Below, piece after piece: positions 1,549-62,011 of a DNA stretch of 64,000 nt (within the stretch, counting starts at the first letter, position 1; every line of letters begins with the position of its first letter). Under the pieces are notes generated by a model, which worked only from the letters and a program-made list of their open reading frames with translations, did no database searches and had not been told where the DNA came from. The stretch comes from Escherichia coli (GTDB lineage Bacteria; Pseudomonadota; Gammaproteobacteria; Enterobacterales; Enterobacteriaceae), in the NCBI RefSeq assembly GCF_030013595.1, contig NZ_CP122768.1; one strand, given 5' to 3'. Position numbers and translations under genes: made by a program.

Positions 1549-1968
1549 TTAGTAACTTTTGCTCCCCTCAATAAATCCGCCATCTTTTATCGGACTGCAA
1601 TGTCCTTCTTCATCAATCAGTTGCTCGTCTTTCAGGTAGGTATATCGATAGATAATTGAGCCATTATCCATCTCACCATTGGTTCGTTTCATTAGGAGAG
1701 TAAAATGTAACGGGCTGTCCCTATATCGAGCTATTCCATGAATATTGGCAAGTACCTCATATTGACGCTCAGGTGATAACCCTTTAAATACATCGAGATA
1801 TCCATGGAATGTTCCATAGAGTGAAGAAGTGTAGATCAGTCGCTGCTCTGGACCAGTAACTTTAAGAGTAATTTGTTCACCCGTATTACAGGTTAGCTTG
1901 GCGGGAAATGTCTCAGCCTGAGCAGAAGAAATAGTCAAGCTTAAAATTATCAGGTAGCAATATTTCAT
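1549..1968 (-). CDS. small secreted/periplasmic protein of unknown function
   Basis: ATG at 1966-1968 gives 139 aa with N-terminal signal peptide MKYCYLIILSLTISSAQA; two Cys in mature part; longer track ORF has an implausible N-extension. Confidence 0.5.
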   Translation of the reverse strand: MKYCYLIILSLTISSAQAETFPAKLTCNTGEQITLKVTGPEQRLIYTSSLYGTFHGYLDVFKGLSPERQYEVLANIHGIARYRDSPLHFTLLMKRTNGEMDNGSIIYRYTYLKDEQLIDEEGHCSPIKDGGFIEGSKSY

Positions 1969-2250
1969 GTGATTAGAATGTCCAAAACTAACATGTATAC
2001 TCGGGATTCTATAACTAGTTGGATGTAGACCCAAGATGTATTGGACTATTCTTCGGTTGTAGTTGGTCAAATCATATATTTTATGTCAGCAATGTCTACT
2101 TTTGGCACATAGCAGACCAGAGACACTGGCGTAAAGCCATGGAGGATCGGTGGGAGGAGGTAAAAATCCTCTCATGCAAAAAATACGCAAAATCGATAAC
2201 AGTTGGAAATCATTCAATACTCGCACTATCGGAAGTTCACCAGCCAGTCG

Positions 2251-2298
2251 TAGCACGTTCTTGCATATGACGTGGCTACGGGTTTCGAGACCGACCCG
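2251..2298. repeat. degenerate direct copy (~85%) of the pin 3' end plus its downstream hairpin
   Basis: Aligns base-by-base with 3272..3320; contains imperfect dyad GTAGCACG..CGTGGCTAC. Confidence 0.5.
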
Positions 2299-2376
2299 AT
2301 CATCAAACGAAACATAAAATTAGCTCACATTATGAGGAAAGGTATCTTTTTGCGCTATGTAAATTCAAAGGGTTAG

Positions 2377-3246
<870 letters not shown>

Positions 3247-3271
3247 GTCTTTAAGTGATAAGCATAAACCG

Positions 3272-3320
3272 CAGCACGATCTTGCATACGACGTGCTACG
3301 GTTTCATTTATCTCCGACCG
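3272..3320. terminator. hairpin between convergent GIY-YIG gene and pin (likely bidirectional terminator); partner of repeat at 2251..2298
   Basis: Dyad AGCACG-13 nt-CGTGCT followed by GGTTTCATTT; overlaps last pin codons. Confidence 0.45.
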
Positions 3321-55488: not shown

Positions 55489-57105
55489 TTACGGCATACT
55501 CATCAGCAGGTCTTCCTCACCGCGCCCGGCAGTTCCGCCACCGGAAACCGCACTGGCAGCATGCTGTGCCATAAAGCGATCAAAAAGTGTTTCCTGTGAC
55601 GGTTGCGATGCCGCCGGCGCGGCTGCCAGCAGCGTTTTCGCCTGCGCCACCGTCATTCCCGGTTGTTCTGTCAGTGCCTGTGCAAGTTGCTCGCGCCCTT
55701 TTGCCTCCGGCAGCGCCATAATCTGATCGCCGACACTTGCAGAACCAGCAACCGGTGCCGCCGCCAGTAACGTTTTGGCCTGGTCAACGGTCATTCCCGG
55801 CTGTTCAGCCAGCGCCTGCGCGAGTTGTTCACGCCCTTTTGCTTCCGGTAACGCCATAATCTGATCGCCTGTGCCTGCAGCACCAGCAGCAGGGGCTGCC
55901 GCCAGAAACGCTTTCGCCTGCTCCACCGTCATCCCCGGCTGACCTGCCAGCATCTGTGCCAGTTGCTCACGCCCCTTTGCTTCCGGCAGCCCCATAATCT
56001 GATCGCCCGTGCTGTCAGTACCGGCAACCGGCGCAGCTGCAAGCAACGTTTTCGCCTGCTCAACCGTCATTCCTGGCTGACCTGCCAGCATTTGCGCCAG
56101 TTGCTCGCGCCCTTTCGCCTCCTGACAATTCAGGATCCCCATCACGCGCTGATTTTCCTGGGCCACCGCTTCAGCAACGGTGAGATTTTTAACAGTCATT
56201 GCATTCTCCTTCGTAACAGAGTCATTCAGTACAGAAACCATCACTTCAACGGCATCTGCAGCATTAATCAGTTGATCAGCCAGGCCTGCATCAATGCCTG
56301 CCTGACCGTCATAAACGGCAGCCTCGGTATTCATCACCGCCTCTGAACTCAGCCCCGTATAAAGCGCCACCTTGTCGACAAACATCCGGCGGGCCTCATC
56401 AATACGGCGCTGAAAATCTGCACGCACACCTGCCGGCAATGCCTGAATACTGTTGCCGTCAACCTTATGCTGCCCGGAGTAAATCAGCGTGATGTCCACC
56501 CCTTCCTGTGCCAGTTGTTTCTCGTAACTGGTGTGCGCCATCATCACGCCAATCGAACCAATTTTTGCCGTCTGCGTGACCAGCCGACGGGTACAGGCTG
56601 CCGCCAGCAACATGGCGGCTGAACAGGCCATGTCATTACACAGCGCCCACACGGGCTTCTGTTCCCGCAGACGGTAAATCATGTCAGCACAGTCAAACGC
56701 CCCGGCAGCCTGACCGCCCGGGCTGTCGATATCCAGCAAAATGCCGCGCACATCCGGATCATTCACCGCCATCTGAAGGCGGGCCGTCAGGCCGTCATAG
56801 CCAGTCATGCCGGAGTAAGGCCGCAGGGTACCCAGTTTATGCACCAGCGTGCCGCTCACCGGAAGAATGGCGATGCCATTCTTCACCTGGTAACTCTTTG
56901 CCGGACGCTGACCGCCCGCCATATAGTCAGTCACAGCCAGTTGCATACCATCAGCATCAAGCTGAACAGCCTGCTGAGGAACGGCAAGGCTGCCGGCACC
57001 CATCTCTTTACCCAGCGCGCAAAAGAAAACCCGCGCATAGGCGGGTTCCAGTAAAAGCGGCTCATTAAATGCCATGGCGGCAATATGCGATAAATTACGA
57101 CGCAT
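55489..57105 (-). CDS. head maturation protease/scaffold (S49/ClpP-like, gpC-like) with repeat-expanded C-terminus
   Basis: 538 aa; N-terminal peptidase domain, four 46-aa tandem repeats in C-terminal half. Confidence 0.85.
   Translation of the reverse strand: MRRNLSHIAAMAFNEPLLLEPAYARVFFCALGKEMGAGSLAVPQQAVQLDADGMQLAVTDYMAGGQRPAKSYQVKNGIAILPVSGTLVHKLGTLRPYSGMTGYDGLTARLQMAVNDPDVRGILLDIDSPGGQAAGAFDCADMIYRLREQKPVWALCNDMACSAAMLLAAACTRRLVTQTAKIGSIGVMMAHTSYEKQLAQEGVDITLIYSGQHKVDGNSIQALPAGVRADFQRRIDEARRMFVDKVALYTGLSSEAVMNTEAAVYDGQAGIDAGLADQLINAADAVEVMVSVLNDSVTKENAMTVKNLTVAEAVAQENQRVMGILNCQEAKGREQLAQMLAGQPGMTVEQAKTLLAAAPVAGTDSTGDQIMGLPEAKGREQLAQMLAGQPGMTVEQAKAFLAAAPAAGAAGTGDQIMALPEAKGREQLAQALAEQPGMTVDQAKTLLAAAPVAGSASVGDQIMALPEAKGREQLAQALTEQPGMTVAQAKTLLAAAPAASQPSQETLFDRFMAQHAASAVSGGGTAGRGEEDLLMSMP
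55590..56145 (-). repeat. four in-frame tandem repeats of 138 bp inside the protease/scaffold gene
   Basis: Motif CG(T/C)TTTCGCCTG... recurs at 55633, 55771, 55909, 56047 (period exactly 138); protein repeat LPEAKGREQLAQ.LA.QPGMTV.QAK.LLAAAP.AG. Confidence 0.85.
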
Positions 57106-58666
57106 CGACTTTTTCTCCCGTTGTCTGTCGGATCTGCTGCTGAAACGTGTCCTTTATCCAGATGGGGCGGGGAAGACCCGCTGCCTGTCGCTCCTGGCTT
57201 TCACGCAGTTGCTGGCGGAAAATCTCCTGATAGTCATCGCCCATCAGGGCCAGCTCTTTCTCATACGTGCTTAAACCACCTTCAATACGCATCACCGCTT
57301 CCTGCACTTCCTTAAGGCCATCAATCGCCATGCGACCGGCACCAATCCACTCGGCACGACACCATCCGGAACGGGCCTCCCAGAATGAAAAACGGGATTT
57401 CGGCGGGCGGATCACACCGCGAATAAGTGCTTCCTCCAGCCAGCAGGCAAACATCTGTGATGCCAGTCGACTGGCCACAAATTTTCGTTTGCCCATAAAA
57501 TACCGCCACGACTCATTGGCGGATGCCCTGGCACTGGAATAACTGACCTGTGAATAATCACGGGAAAGCTGTTCATAGGACACCCCCAGTCCGGCAGCGA
57601 TGTAACGTAACAGCGCCTTTTCCAGTTCAGAGAAACCATTATCTGCATTCTGCGCTGTCTGCAGATTCAGTGAATCCCCCGGATAAAGATGCGGAATACG
57701 GACCCCGCCCAGCTTTACCGTATTGGTGGCGTAATAACGCGCGTAGCCTTTCATGATGGTGTTCAGGGGATTTTTACCGCCATCTCCCACCCCGGCGATA
57801 TATTCAAATGCTTTTTCCGAATCCAGCGTGGATTCAATCGTCGCGGCATACATCGCCCGCACCACCGCCGACTGCAGTTGCGTGGCCTGCAGTGTGTCGA
57901 GCATCTTGAGGCGCTCCATGACAGAATAAAACTGGTTGGCCCCGCGCGTCTGTCCGTCCTCCTGCGGCTGAAACACATGGATCATTCCCGGTCGCCCGGA
58001 GGGCAGCGTCGCCGCAATCCGCGTCCAGTTGCTGACACCGTAACCGGGCCAGTCATCTTCCTGAACATGGTAGGCCAGTGCTTTTCCGTACCGGTTGATT
58101 TCCACCCCGGCACGCATAAAACGATCGCCGGTACCATAACCGGGTGTACTGACACGTTTCGGGCTGATGGTTTTGAATTTCGTCCGGAATAATGACGTGG
58201 ATTCCGTATCCCATACGGGCTGGACAAAAATTTCACCGTTAAATGTATGAACGCCCACCCCTTCACGAATAAATTCGGTAAACGAGCGACGCCCCTCCAC
58301 ATCCATCGAACCAAACACCGGATCGCAGAATTCCATCCACGCCGCCTCCACATCTTCAATAAAGGCATGTGAATCGGCTTCCGACATCCCCAGCCAGCGC
58401 CAGTTGGGCCGGTAACTCAGACGAAACATGTGTCCGACGATATGGTCTTTATGAATTTCAACGGCGTTTGCGGCAATACCGTTATTGCGGACCAGATCAT
58501 CCGCACGGGCGTTACCCAGCTGAATGGAAGGTAAGAGCGCCACGTCGGCACTTTCCGGTGCAGGCAGCCATTCCGCAAGCTGCCCGCCAAATCCGGTACC
58601 CCCTCCGGAATACCCCATACTCTGCCGCAGTGGCTGCCCGTGAAGATCCACCAGTTCCCCGTTCAC
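57095..58666 (-). CDS. portal protein (lambda gpB family)
   Basis: 523 aa; synteny. Confidence 0.9.
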   Translation of the reverse strand: MNGELVDLHGQPLRQSMGYSGGGTGFGGQLAEWLPAPESADVALLPSIQLGNARADDLVRNNGIAANAVEIHKDHIVGHMFRLSYRPNWRWLGMSEADSHAFIEDVEAAWMEFCDPVFGSMDVEGRRSFTEFIREGVGVHTFNGEIFVQPVWDTESTSLFRTKFKTISPKRVSTPGYGTGDRFMRAGVEINRYGKALAYHVQEDDWPGYGVSNWTRIAATLPSGRPGMIHVFQPQEDGQTRGANQFYSVMERLKMLDTLQATQLQSAVVRAMYAATIESTLDSEKAFEYIAGVGDGGKNPLNTIMKGYARYYATNTVKLGGVRIPHLYPGDSLNLQTAQNADNGFSELEKALLRYIAAGLGVSYEQLSRDYSQVSYSSARASANESWRYFMGKRKFVASRLASQMFACWLEEALIRGVIRPPKSRFSFWEARSGWCRAEWIGAGRMAIDGLKEVQEAVMRIEGGLSTYEKELALMGDDYQEIFRQQLRESQERQAAGLPRPIWIKDTFQQQIRQTTGEKVDAS

Positions 58667-58872
58667 AGCCCCACTCCTGCCGGGCCGCGACGCCGTCCGG
58701 ATACGCCCAGCGCACTTTCCAGCTCTTCAATATACTGACGCAGTTCACCAATCGTCGCCCGCGAATACTGAACCTGACGCCCGTCCTTGCTGACGGAAAC
58801 CACAGCACGTCCGATCATCAGTTCATGTAATGCCCGGCGGGCATCACAAAGCATTTCATGCGTATAAACCAT
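58663..58872 (-). CDS. head-tail joining protein W
   Basis: 69 aa; ...RQYIEELESALGVSGRRRGPAG resembles lambda gpW C-terminus. Confidence 0.85.
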   Translation of the reverse strand: MVYTHEMLCDARRALHELMIGRAVVSVSKDGRQVQYSRATIGELRQYIEELESALGVSGRRRGPAGVGL

Positions 58873-58875
58873 TCT

Positions 58876-60792
58876 TTATCCTCCACTCAGTGCAGCCGCG
58901 ATTTCTTCCAGACTCATCTCATCGTCGTCCTGCTCATCTCTTCTGGCACGGGCCAGTGCTTCAAGATCCAGCTGCCACCGCTGAACTGAAATACGCAGGG
59001 CAGCATAGGCATATACCAGGCAGTCGAGGGCTTCGTTGCGTCGCCCTTTTTTATCCCACAGCAGTTTCACCCTGCCATTAACCACCTTCTCCACCAGCTC
59101 TTCCGCCACGATCTGACGCGCCTCTTCTTCCGAAAAAATGTCGGGGTTATCAGGAAAACGGAAGGTGTACGGGGCGGCTTCACTGGCAGAGACCACTGGC
59201 AGGGCAAAACGGGCGTACAGCATTTCCTTGACGGTATCGGAGCCCACCTCACACAAAAACACACCACGCTGGTTGCGCTTTTTGGGCATGGTGATCACCG
59301 GCTTGCCGTACACCGATGCCCCTTTTATGGGAAGCACAAAAAAAGTGCCGTGTTTCCTTGAACGCTGATACACAATGTCCTGGTCGATACCACCGGTATC
59401 CCAGCAGACACGGGAAATGGAAATTTCAGTACCGTCAGCATGACGATATTTTTTCCGGATCACCGTATCAACACGTTTAAGGGTGTCCTCGTCTTCCGGT
59501 CGCCCCATGATAATTTGCTTATCAATCAGAAAGGCTTCTTCGCCGGGAGCCCAGCCCCAGACATAAATTTCATAGCGATCTTTCTGGGAGTCGATCCCGG
59601 CGGTCAGGTAAACCACCCGCAGGGGAACCTGCGCACCATAGTGGCAGACCTTTTCCAGTAACAACTCAAAACTCAGCTTTTCTGCCACAGCCTCTTCATA
59701 GGGCTCCCCGAGCGTGGTGTTAATAAACGTCTTGACGCCGTTCGGATCCTTCAGCGCATCCAGCCAGTCATAAACAATCTGTACCCAGGTGGTGAACGGA
59801 CTATACGCCGTCCAGATGTGGAAAGTGACGGAGCGCGGCGGTGGCATCTCCTCATCGCCGGCGCTGTAAAATGCCAGGCCGTCGCGCGTCCACATCCCGG
59901 TATTGTCACAAATCCAGCGCCCGTCGGTCTGGTCAAGTTCCGACTGCCGGATCACACAGCCATTATGTTCACACAGGTAATACACCGTTTCCGGTTTACC
60001 CTTCTCCCATTTCAGGCCAAATGGCGTCGCATCATCGCCAAACTTCAGATACTGGGCCTCCCCGCAATGAGGGCAAGGGACATAAAACCGCATGAAATGC
60101 GCTGATTCATTTGCGGCTTTCTCAATCTGGCAGGAGCCTTTAATTTTTGGCGTTGAGCCACGTATGGATTTAGGCCATACCGAGCCTTCGATACGCTTAT
60201 CGCCAAGCAGCGTCGGCGAACCTTCTTTTTCCACATCCGGTTCAAACGAGGAGAGTTCGTCATAGCAGACCACATCCACAGATTTTTCACGGTAGTTTTT
60301 AGCAGCGGCGCCGCCAAGGCACCAGAAACCCACACCGGAGGAAAAACGCTTCAGGGTGAGTGTATTATCGCGGTGCTTTCTTCCGAACCATGGAGCCAGC
60401 TCCAGCAATGCAGGAACATCCCTGATCGTTGGCTCAACATGAGATTTCATGAAATCTTCTGCAGCAGAATCTGTTGGCTGAAAAAGCAGACTGTTACGGG
60501 ATTTATGCTCAATAAAATAAGCCTCCACCCCCAACAGCATTTTGGTGTAACCAACGCGCGCCGATTTAATCAGATTAACGGTGCGGATCCGGTCATTTCC
60601 CATGCTGTTCATAATGGCAACCTGAAACGGCAGGGTTTCCCATTGTCCGGGAGTGTATGAAGATTCTTTCGGCAGATAATAATGTTGATCAGCCCACTGA
60701 ACCGTCGTCAGTGGAACCGGAATATTGAGAGATAAAAGCCCTGTAGCTATCGCACCGGCTGCATTAGCTGCCTTCTGTGCGTCTGAAATCAT
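58876..60792 (-). CDS. terminase large subunit (lambda gpA family)
   Basis: Track ORF 652 aa; internal Met at 60792 reduces overlap with small subunit; VEWADANYYLPKES-type motif. Confidence 0.92.
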
Positions 60793-61312
60793 CAATCCAC
60801 CTGCCCACGTTTTCACCGGCTTTAGCTGCAACATTGGAGGCTTTCGCGATTTCAGTTTTCACCACATCAAGGTGTGACGGTGAAATATCCGGATATTTAC
60901 GCTGTAATGTCAGCGGCACACGTACAAGTATCCCCGAAATCTCCTGTGCCACACGTTGCAGAATGAAGGTAAACAATTCTGTTTCCAGCACCAGCCCTTC
61001 TTCACGGGCATTTTTCAGCTCCTGTGCGTCAGCCTGTGCTTTGGTTAACCGGTAGCGTTCATAGTCAATGGTGCCGGGTTGTAAATCTGATTCTGCAGTC
61101 GCACGCAAATCTTCCAGTTCTTTGCGGAGCTTTTCGTTTTCGATATCTTTTTCCCGCTGCGCATACCACTCAATGGCTTCTGCAGTATTGAACATGGCTT
61201 CGATACCTTTGCCTCCCCCCGACAAAACTCTCAGCCCCTGACTTTGCCAGCCAGTGATTGTTCTGACATCGCACTCAAAAATTTCCGCCAGTTTCTTTTT
61301 GTTAACCTTCAC
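60764..61312 (-). CDS. terminase small subunit (lambda Nu1 family)
   Basis: 182 aa; [26 protein letters not shown] vs lambda Nu1 MEVNKKQLADIFGASIRTIQNWQEQG, similarity throughout. Confidence 0.9.
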
Positions 61313-61319
61313 GGCACAT

Positions 61320-61520
61320 ATTCCTCACAAAAAGAAGAAAGGATCTCAAAACGCTTTTTTCAGCGAAAAATCACCGCTGCCAGATCCTTTCTTTTTTTAA
61401 GAAAACTCTATTAAACAACAGGTTAGCCAGAAGAAGAACGGATCTGCTTTTTCCCTGAAAATTTTCATAAATAGCGCGTTTTTGCGCGTCCCCAGACCCT
61501 CGGTGTTTCAGGTTCCAGAA
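61320..61520 (-). other. cos region (cosB-like Nu1-binding and IHF elements; cosN nearby)
   Basis: Minus strand has CGCTATTTATGAAAATTTTC and CCGTTCTTCTTC, both present in lambda cos; the segment corresponding to lambda cosN differs. Confidence 0.55.
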
Positions 61521-61612
61521 AGGACCCGTTGAAATGGGAGTAATTATCATTTACACGCTCTAACACCTGCATTATCGCAACCCCTCACACAGAAGGGCTG
61601 CTGTAATGCCTG

Positions 61613-62011
61613 TTACTCACGAATCAGGCGAGCACTCTTACCATTCATTTCAATACGCGAATACTGCGGTTTACCATCAATGATGTCTGTCATCACGAAC
61701 ATCTCACCCGGCTGCAGTTCAACTACTGCGCCTTCCGGCAATTTCATGCAGGCAAATACCGGACAACCAGGATGACGATCATCTTCTGTTGCTTCCAGCA
61801 TTGACTCACCAAACCACTCCGTCGTGGCGCGACCATCAGCTGCTTTGTAGTGGATCAAGTACTGGTTTTCGCCATCCGCATACTGCGCGCGGGCTTTAAC
61901 CTCACCCCATTCATCACTGATGCGCATCTCCACCAGTTGAGACAACTCAAACTTAAACGGAGCAGCATCAGCACCAATTACAATCGGTTTGCTTTCTGTT
62001 TTTTCCATCAT
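61613..62011 (-). CDS. hypothetical protein between lysis cassette and cos
   Basis: 132-aa ORF, no recognisable motifs. Confidence 0.4.
   Translation of the reverse strand: MMEKTESKPIVIGADAAPFKFELSQLVEMRISDEWGEVKARAQYADGENQYLIHYKAADGRATTEWFGESMLEATEDDRHPGCPVFACMKLPEGAVVELQPGEMFVMTDIIDGKPQYSRIEMNGKSARLIRE

Follow-up and report, generated by a model that had tools for sequence, protein, structure and literature searches.

A lambda-type cos region with a divergent predicted cohesive end in an Escherichia coli prophage

In lambda-like phages the bases CG are reported to be conserved before both nicks of cosN, and natural variation of the cohesive end is described as confined to bp 7-12 while ACG^GGGCGG is maintained (PMC4669245; here and below carets mark the limits of the cohesive end). 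Between cosN and cosB lies I2, an essential, statically bent segment that covers bp 18-50 in lambda (PMC4856287). The endonuclease centres of the large terminase subunit (TerL) are not highly sequence specific (PMC9026076), and according to the lambda literature it is the spacing between cosN and cosB that sets the position of the nicks: changes in this spacing displace them, and even a 3-bp deletion results in a severe packaging defect. Here we describe a cos region on the minus strand of an E. coli prophage, contained in a stretch of 64,000 nucleotides that is referred to below as the window, in which a lambda-type architecture is combined with a cohesive end that is probably of another kind.

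The region was aligned with the cos junctions of lambda (NC_001416), phage 21 (OL657228, in which the cos subsites are annotated) and Gifsy-1. A preliminary description of this DNA had placed a cos region upstream of a Nu1 homologue and had proposed alignment with the lambda and 21 sites as a check. With Gifsy-1 added, the alignment recovered the lambda-type layout in full, and the Nu1 homologue begins at 61312 (GTG), directly downstream of the complete subsite array. With bp numbers counted from the predicted top-strand nick, the features of the site and of the packaging genes that follow it are these:

61521..61527, minus strand: cosQ (GGGTCCT), the packaging-termination signal, identical to cosQ of lambda and to that annotated in phage 21
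61499..61520, minus strand: cosQ-cosN spacer TTCTGGAACCTGAAACACCGAG, 22 nt, a class-specific left arm that ends in purine-G where lambda has CG
61487..61498, minus strand: predicted 12-nt 5' cohesive end 5'-GGTCTGGGGACG-3' (cosN core), placed by spacing, class members, record starts and the chimera L128
61449..61486, minus strand: right flank CGC and I2 (bp 13-50), with the invariant TTATGAAAATTTT between two A5 tracts
61432..61449, minus strand: R3, predicted binding site AAGCAGATCCGTTCTTCT of the small terminase subunit (TerS), of Gifsy-1 type, its position matching the annotated R3 of phage 21 (bp 50-65)
61413..61425, minus strand: I1, predicted IHF site TAACCTGTTGTTT, bp 74-86, at the same coordinates as I1 of phage 21
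61378..61393, minus strand: R2, inverted predicted TerS site AAGAAAGGATCTGGCA (reverse complement TGCCAGATCCTTTCTT), bp 106-121
61333..61348, minus strand: R1, predicted TerS site TGAGATCCTTTCTTCT, bp 151-166
60764..61312, minus strand: terminase small subunit of the Nu1 family, 182 aa, GTG start at bp 187 (Pfam Phage_Nu1, E = 1e-84)
58876..60834, minus strand: terminase large subunit of the gpA family, 652 aa (Pfam GpA_ATPase, 8e-55, and GpA_nuclease, 5e-68)
58663-58872, minus strand: gpW homologue, 69 aa, intact (Pfam gpW)
57095-58666, minus strand: portal protein of the lambda family, 523 aa, intact (Pfam Phage_portal_2)

cosQ, cosN, I2, R3, I1, the inverted R2 and R1 stand at their lambda positions and are followed directly by intact genes for Nu1, gpA, gpW and the portal; the site can be regarded as a complete lambda-type cos. 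We put the probability that it is a functional cos site of a lambda/21/Gifsy-like E. coli prophage at roughly 0.7, its activity being predicted from sequence. It also agrees in several points with the Feiss definition of a lambda-like cos: a Nu1-family TerS and a gpA-family TerL with ATPase and endonuclease domains are encoded immediately to the right. The cosB is of the complex type, with R3, the IHF site I1, an inverted R2 and R1 in that order, and 22 nt separate cosQ from the predicted top-strand nick to its right, within the distance of about 22-23 bp that is usual for such sites. This cosQ (61527..61521) is just outside the interval 61320-61520 to which the preliminary description had been confined. 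The spacer between cosQ and cosN is 22 nt long both in the window and in a group of relatives designated L025-L034, as against 23 in lambda. In this part the window is 99.8% identical to E. coli strain UMNF18 and 94% identical to a partial record of the SerU-LTIIb prophage.

Some further sequences in and around the locus may be mentioned here. An ORF of 59 aa (61371-61550, minus strand) covers cosN, I2, R3, I1 and R2; the equivalent ORF carries the label 'NU1-like protein' in KU052038 and is called hypothetical in RefSeq genomes, but it is almost certainly not a gene. Another ORF, of 132 aa (61613-62011, minus strand), lies between the lysis genes and cos and has no Pfam match, and upstream of cos the sequence varies among relatives. 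Within the S49 peptidase/scaffold gene (55489-57105, minus strand) there is a tandem repeat at 55614-56122, with a 138-bp unit present 3.7 times at 80% identity, which encodes repeats of about 46 aa (EAKGREQLAQ.LA.QPGMTV.QAK.LLAAAP...) in the C-terminal half of a gpC-like protease.

Two strings known from lambda cos, and a segment that differs from the lambda cohesive end, had been pointed out on the minus strand. All three were located by exact string search and each is unique in the window: the 20-mer CGCTATTTATGAAAATTTTC at 61476..61457, the 12-mer CCGTTCTTCTTC at 61441..61430 and GGGTCTGGGGAC at 61499..61488. The lambda cohesive end GGGCGGCGACCT is absent from both strands of the whole 64 kb window. 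CGCTATTTATGAAAATTTTC matches lambda bp 23-42 exactly and CCGTTCTTCTTC matches lambda bp 58-69 exactly, and when counted from the best-supported nick both fall at lambda's own bp numbers. An exact 20-mer match would be expected by chance at a rate of about 1e-7 in 128 kb, so that the match of CGCTATTTATGAAAATTTTC reflects homology. Both strings had been taken for lambda-like cosB elements, which holds for the architecture of the site but has to be modified in its particulars. CGCTATTTATGAAAATTTTC is part of I2 and not of cosB: this segment between cosN and R3 is identical to lambda over bp 23-42 at the same coordinates, although the left 10 nt of I2 differ, with an A5 tract in place of T4. CCGTTCTTCTTC comprises the 3' half of R3 together with four further bases, while the part of the R site that carries specificity is of Gifsy-1 type. 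The putative IHF site TAACCTGTTGTTT aligns with the annotated TAACTTTTTGTTT of phage 21 and with TAACTTAATGTTT of lambda.

The small terminase subunit is itself a mosaic. Over its whole length it is 87% identical to gp1 of phage 21, 78% to Nu1 of Gifsy-1 and 52% to that of lambda, but the first 50 or so residues, with the DNA-binding domain, are of Gifsy-1 type and the C-terminal two thirds are nearly identical to gp1 of phage 21. The large subunit is 82% identical to gp2 of phage 21. In type the R sites agree with the DNA-binding domain. The motif (C/G)AGATCC(G/T)TTCTT occurs in three copies in cosB, the middle one inverted, and the 5' part of the R site reads CAGATCC in the window and in Gifsy-1, CGTTTCC in lambda and CATGTCGG in phage 21. 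In 17 representative loci the type of helix and that of the R sites go together without exception: the helix xDVRT(I/V)TxWQSQG is paired with CAGATCC, VDPRTIERWQSQG with the 21-type CATGTCGG, and the lambda helix with CGTTTCC. This argues that the cosB described here is the working partner of its Nu1. The recognition helix is of the Gifsy-1 type (DVRTVTAWQSQG in Gifsy-1 itself) and the R core CAGATCC is shared with that phage, and despite the 87% identity of Nu1 the window has neither the CATGTCGG R sites nor the VDPRTIERWQ helix of phage 21. The cosB is thus lambda-like in its architecture only, and to judge from its R sites its specificity is probably not of the lambda type. For annotation, this would place the cosB in the Gifsy-1 specificity group although the terminase resembles that of phage 21, and an overall figure of 87% identity to 21 is misleading with respect to packaging specificity. 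A separate case is the locus L141 (E. coli C5, NZ_CP010122), in which a cosN of the window's class and the I2 core are followed by another cosB sequence, TCGAGTTCCACTTCCGG..., which implies a further packaging-specificity type.

The flanks of the cohesive end contain CCG...CGCGC, and three registers are therefore conceivable. The register GGTCTGGGGACG (61498..61487), with predicted nicks between 61499 and 61498 on the top strand and between 61487 and 61486 on the bottom strand, appears to be the best supported, with a probability of about 0.7-0.75 if the site is active. It is preferred for its spacing, for the canonical members of its class, for the record starts in a second lineage and for the chimera L128. 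Aligned without gaps, it leaves 16 nt between the nick and TTATG, as in all 27 lambda-class cores, and 22 nt between cosQ and the nick, as in the L025 group, the gpA of which is 98-100% identical to that of the window over most of the protein. Numbered from 61498, I1 occupies bp 74-86, exactly as annotated in phage 21, and R3, R2, R1 and the start of Nu1 are all within 1-2 bp of their phage 21 positions. In this register two members of the class, L116 and L129, have GGGCGGCAGACG, the canonical left half of lambda. The Aeromonas phages phiARM81ld and PhAER-5, which are TerL relatives of a group represented by phage 705R4, have records that start with GGGCGTTAGACC, and an ungapped alignment of leaders places the end of 705R4 at GGTCGGTAGACG, identical to GGGCGTTAGACC at nine of the 12 bases. 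In the PhAER-5 record (PQ495742; L135/L136) the 12-mer GGGCGTTAGACC stands at the left end and again at the right, there with two additional T, which is consistent with filled-in 12-nt cohesive ends having been left in the assembly.

This register also has points against it. A purine is found at -2 where conservation of C has been reported, and in the left half, GGTCTG, bp 2-6 do not read GGCGG as they otherwise do. A G2C change in lambda costs about 10-fold in yield, and G2 is kept in the window. The experimental determination of the phiARM81ld record start is undocumented, and the chimera is a single contig. No record or contig was found to start or end at this cos in blastn searches of the phage collection or in scans of metagenome and viral contigs, and of the contigs that carry the right arm, 10 from metagenomes and 28 viral, not one starts at cos; in one of the scans of viral contigs, six of the nine matches were due to chance in GC-rich coding DNA.

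The chimera is found in the viral contig IMGVR_UViG_2531839265_000001 (L128; locus 1876-1990, minus strand). In this natural chimeric cos a lambda-class left arm of the L025 type, running to ...GCCACG, is joined directly to GGTCTGGGGACG-CGCAAAAAC and a 21-type cosB, with no homology between the arms over some 20 nt to the left and to the right of the junction. The structure looks like the expected product of top-strand replication after a chromosome cut at two different cos sites had annealed with mismatched ends; chromosomes with mismatched cohesive ends have been built and studied by Feiss et al. (PMC4669245). The junction falls exactly at the predicted GGTCTGGGGACG nick and the other two registers predict different junctions, and for this reason it supports the GGTCTGGGGACG register. 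Reciprocal and right-nick chimeras were also searched for and none was found.

Nicks two bases further to the left in the same cos would give the end AGGGTCTGGGGA (61500..61489), which we regard as improbable. Such an end would have CG on both sides as in lambda, in keeping with the reported conservation of CG flanks (PMC4669245), all members of the class can be read as CCG^RGGGnnnnnnnA^CGCGC, the top half-site CG^RGG would match both half-sites of lambda (CG^GGG and CG^AGG), and the A/G polymorphism of the class would fall inside the overhang. It was the register initially favoured, and was dropped as the best guess after the evidence of spacing, homology and the chimera. It would lengthen the distance from cosN to I2 and R3 by 2 bp and shorten that from cosQ to cosN by 2 bp in comparison with relatives that have a gpA 98-100% identical over most of the protein, and it has three of 12 bases in common with lambda where GGTCTGGGGACG has six. 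It also predicts the junction CCACG+AGGGTCT where L128 has CCACG+GGTCT, and is inconsistent with the ungapped alignment to the record starts of phiARM81ld and PhAER-5. Less probable still is the intermediate register GGGTCTGGGGAC (61499..61488), the segment to which the cohesive end had originally been assigned. It starts with GGG like lambda and nearly centres the 7-nt variable block, yet its flanks, GR^ and ^GC, are both unlike those of lambda, its spacing to I2 and R3 is off by one base, and it matches lambda at four of 12 bases; at the L128 junction it predicts CCACG+GGGTCT, with four Gs, where three are observed. The segment was thus correctly recognised as divergent from lambda, but is most likely one base out of register with respect to GGTCTGGGGACG.

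Comparison with relatives suggests that the divergence of GGTCTGGGGACG is not peculiar to this prophage. We tabulated the segment from cosQ to I2 in 80 viral-contig loci that encode relatives of Nu1, with cosQ, which is present in about 70 of the 80, serving as one of two anchors, and extended the sample with contigs from pattern scans and with E. coli genomes. Isolate genomes and metagenomes both contributed members of the window's class. These class statistics, like the motif positions, the helix/R-site co-variation and the chimera, were computed in this study. The lambda class comprises 27 distinct cores of the form ACG^GGGCG(G)nnnnnn^CGC, with variation only at bp 6-12. The class of the window comprises 22 distinct cores (36-mers) with 15 distinct 12-mers, in which the left arm ACACCGRG is followed by GGnnnnnnnACG and then by CGCAAAAAC. 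Its left arm is conserved, the base at -2 being A or G. No member departs from G-1, G1, G2, A10, C11, G12 or the right flank CGC, and the variation lies at bp 3-9. The window itself has AG as its left flank and GGTCTG as its left half, in place of CG and GGGCGG, and keeps CG in the right flank. GGTCTGGGGACG is identical to the lambda end GGGCGGCGACCT at six of 12 bases, with an overhang whose length and polarity are presumed from the enzyme family and from relatives. The suggestion that the cohesive end is probably unlike that of lambda is therefore borne out both for the window and for a whole class of relatives, as far as predicted ends allow, and for annotation it follows that the cohesive end of this prophage family should not be copied from lambda.

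By its sequence, GGTCTGGGGACG belongs to a widespread natural cosN class in which bp 3-9 appear to drift freely. This class would depart from the published cosN pattern, since its left half varies, bp 10-12 are fixed and a purine is found at -2, and it limits the general statement that selection acts on the left half of cosN. Its novelty is provisional. A literature search with the 12-mers as strings returned only unrelated papers and no phage paper, and it did not cover the single survey devoted to the subject (Vahanian et al. 2017, Virology 509:140-145), which may already tabulate this class. Two loci with paired sites were also seen: L090 (~2282-3305) has two convergent (inverted) cos sites of the window's class within 0.5-1 kb, around a single Nu1-like gene with no gpA after it, and L110 (~1458-1982) has two convergent sites of the class within 0.5-1 kb with no Nu1 between them. 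These pairs may represent rearrangement, abutting elements or misassembly.

The same survey bears on the question of whether the site is a relic, in a prophage that no longer packages or that uses another site or headful packaging, with the divergent cosN as a product of decay. Several carriers are indeed defective, as SerU-LTIIb has a truncated terS and UMNF18 a frameshifted portal gene, and the left half of cosN departs from a sequence reported to be under selection. We nevertheless consider a relic quite unlikely. The flanks adjoining the variable core are invariant over the 22 distinct cores while sequences further out differ, and cosB/TerS types of at least three kinds occur with the class, as does a TerL that is only 38% identical over the first 198 aa. 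Moreover, every packaging gene of the window is intact and all are of the cos-cutting gpA family, and decay would not have spared cosQ, I2 and all three R sites.

Returning to the reading of a functional site, the relationship between cosN class and terminase is also informative. Within the window's class gpA is 95-100% identical. The L025-L034 group has ends of the GGGCGG type and a gpA that is 98-100% identical to that of the window across most of the protein, including most of the nuclease region (Pfam residues 336-616). The two differ in the N-terminal 50 residues, in a stretch of slightly lower identity near column 300 and in a stretch of about 50 residues (alignment columns 550-600) at about 80% identity, and in this comparison no TerL changes that co-vary with cosN class were found. 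The gpA nuclease evidently tolerates almost any sequence at bp 3-9, as far as can be judged from these alignments, in line with the low sequence specificity published for the TerL endonuclease centres (PMC9026076). The use of a nearly unchanged nuclease for GGGCGG-type as well as GGnnnnnnnACG-type sites favours the idea that TerL recognises very little of cosN itself and owes its position chiefly to TerS, I2 and the geometry of cosB. The window-class block from cosQ to cosN also occurs with 21-type cosB (L022, L023, L137-139), with the other cosB type of L141 and with the unrelated TerS of the 705R4 type. Since the same near-identical gpA is found with both cosN classes, and since the block occurs with several cosB types, the cosQ-cosN block can be viewed as an exchangeable module. 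In evolution the cosQ-cosN block, the cosB together with the DNA-binding domain of TerS, and the rest of the terminase would then behave as separately exchangeable modules. For packaging specialists it is this pattern at the level of the class that may be of interest, in that the left half varies freely, the nuclease hardly changes and the modules can be exchanged.

It is possible to outline how the site might work. The general steps are those of the standard scheme in the lambda literature. The Nu1-family TerS, with its winged-helix domain of Gifsy-1 type, would bind R3, the inverted R2 and R1 through the core CAGATCC[G/T]TTCTT, aided by an IHF bend at I1; TerS dimers would occupy R3 and R2 across this bend and R1 would provide a third TerS site. 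Two gpA endonuclease centres, anchored at a fixed distance across the I2 bend, would then nick the strands 12 bp apart and give virion DNA with the 5' overhang GGTCTGGGGACG (61498..61487). The strands would separate, with the complex staying on the end that bears cosB, and packaging would terminate at the next cosQ-cosN, where cosQ is 22 bp to the left of the nick. We infer the nick positions, the length and polarity of the overhang and the activity of the site from these correspondences.

A more far-reaching interpretation, which we offer as a tentative and rather doubtful one, is that the gpA-type terminases have a separate cosN class, not recognised before, to which the site in the window belongs. 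In this class ACG, as the last three bases, and the right flank would be fixed, so that the functional asymmetry of lambda would be reversed or relaxed, and the gpA that uses the site would match a user of lambda-type cosN at 98-100% identity in its nuclease region, except for one stretch of about 50 residues at about 80%. If this were true, the near-saturated diversity of the 7-nt core, in phages that are otherwise nearly identical, could exceed what drift would produce, and might constitute an end-compatibility barcode. Such a barcode would penalise cyclisation where the two ends of a chromosome came from different, co-resident cos sites, and L128 would be a rare survivor.

Among known systems, Gifsy-1 shares with the window the R-site core (CAGATCC[G/T]TTC), the type of Nu1 recognition helix, the order R3-I1-R2-R1, cosQ and the I2 core TTATGAAAATTTTC. 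It differs in its end, GGGCGGCAGCGT, which is flanked by ACG and CGC and belongs to the lambda class, in the distance from cosQ to cosN (23 nt, against 22 in the window), and in the left part of I2, which reads CGCAGGATTTCAC where the window has CGCAAAAACGCGC; the C-terminal two thirds of Nu1, of phage 21 type in the window, are also unlike those of Gifsy-1. Phage 21 is close in Nu1 (87%), in gpA (82%) and in the position of I1, at bp 74-86 in both (annotated cos of OL657228), whereas its cosN is that of lambda, GGGCGGCGACCT, its R sites are CATGTCGG and its recognition helix is VDPRTIERWQ. With lambda itself the window has in common the overall architecture, cosQ and the terminase families, and the two agree in every base of I2 bp 23-42 and R3 bp 58-69, at equal coordinates, whereas the cohesive end differs at bp 3, 5, 7, 9, 10 and 12, the base at -2 is A and not C, R3 differs at bp 54-56 and Nu1 is only 52% identical. 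The cosN variants studied in the Feiss laboratory (N15, phiD326, Gifsy-1, mEp213) are likewise natural variants of a 12-base end that are used by the same enzyme family and have the right flank CGC. In these only bp 7-12 vary and ACG^GGGCGG is conserved, a pattern to which the lambda-class cores tabulated here also conform, while in the window's class bp 3-9 vary, ACG is fixed at bp 10-12 and a purine is found at -2.

The nearest counterpart of the cosQ-cosN block lies in another lineage altogether. Escherichia phage vB_EcoM-705R4 (L096, ON470624) has a nearly identical cosQ-spacer-cosN block, ACACCGAG GGTCGGTAGACG CGCAAAAAC, and prophages of Escherichia whittamii (L142) and Enterobacter mori (L143) carry the same block as 705R4. 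In comparison with the window, the TerL of this lineage has an identity of only 38% over the first 198 aa, its TerS is essentially unrelated, and it has no R3-I1-R2-R1 array, a short leader of about 78 nt leading to the start of TerS. The sharing of this block between the window and the phiARM81ld-related lineage (L096, L142, L143) suggests, at the level of sequence, that it may move horizontally as a module.
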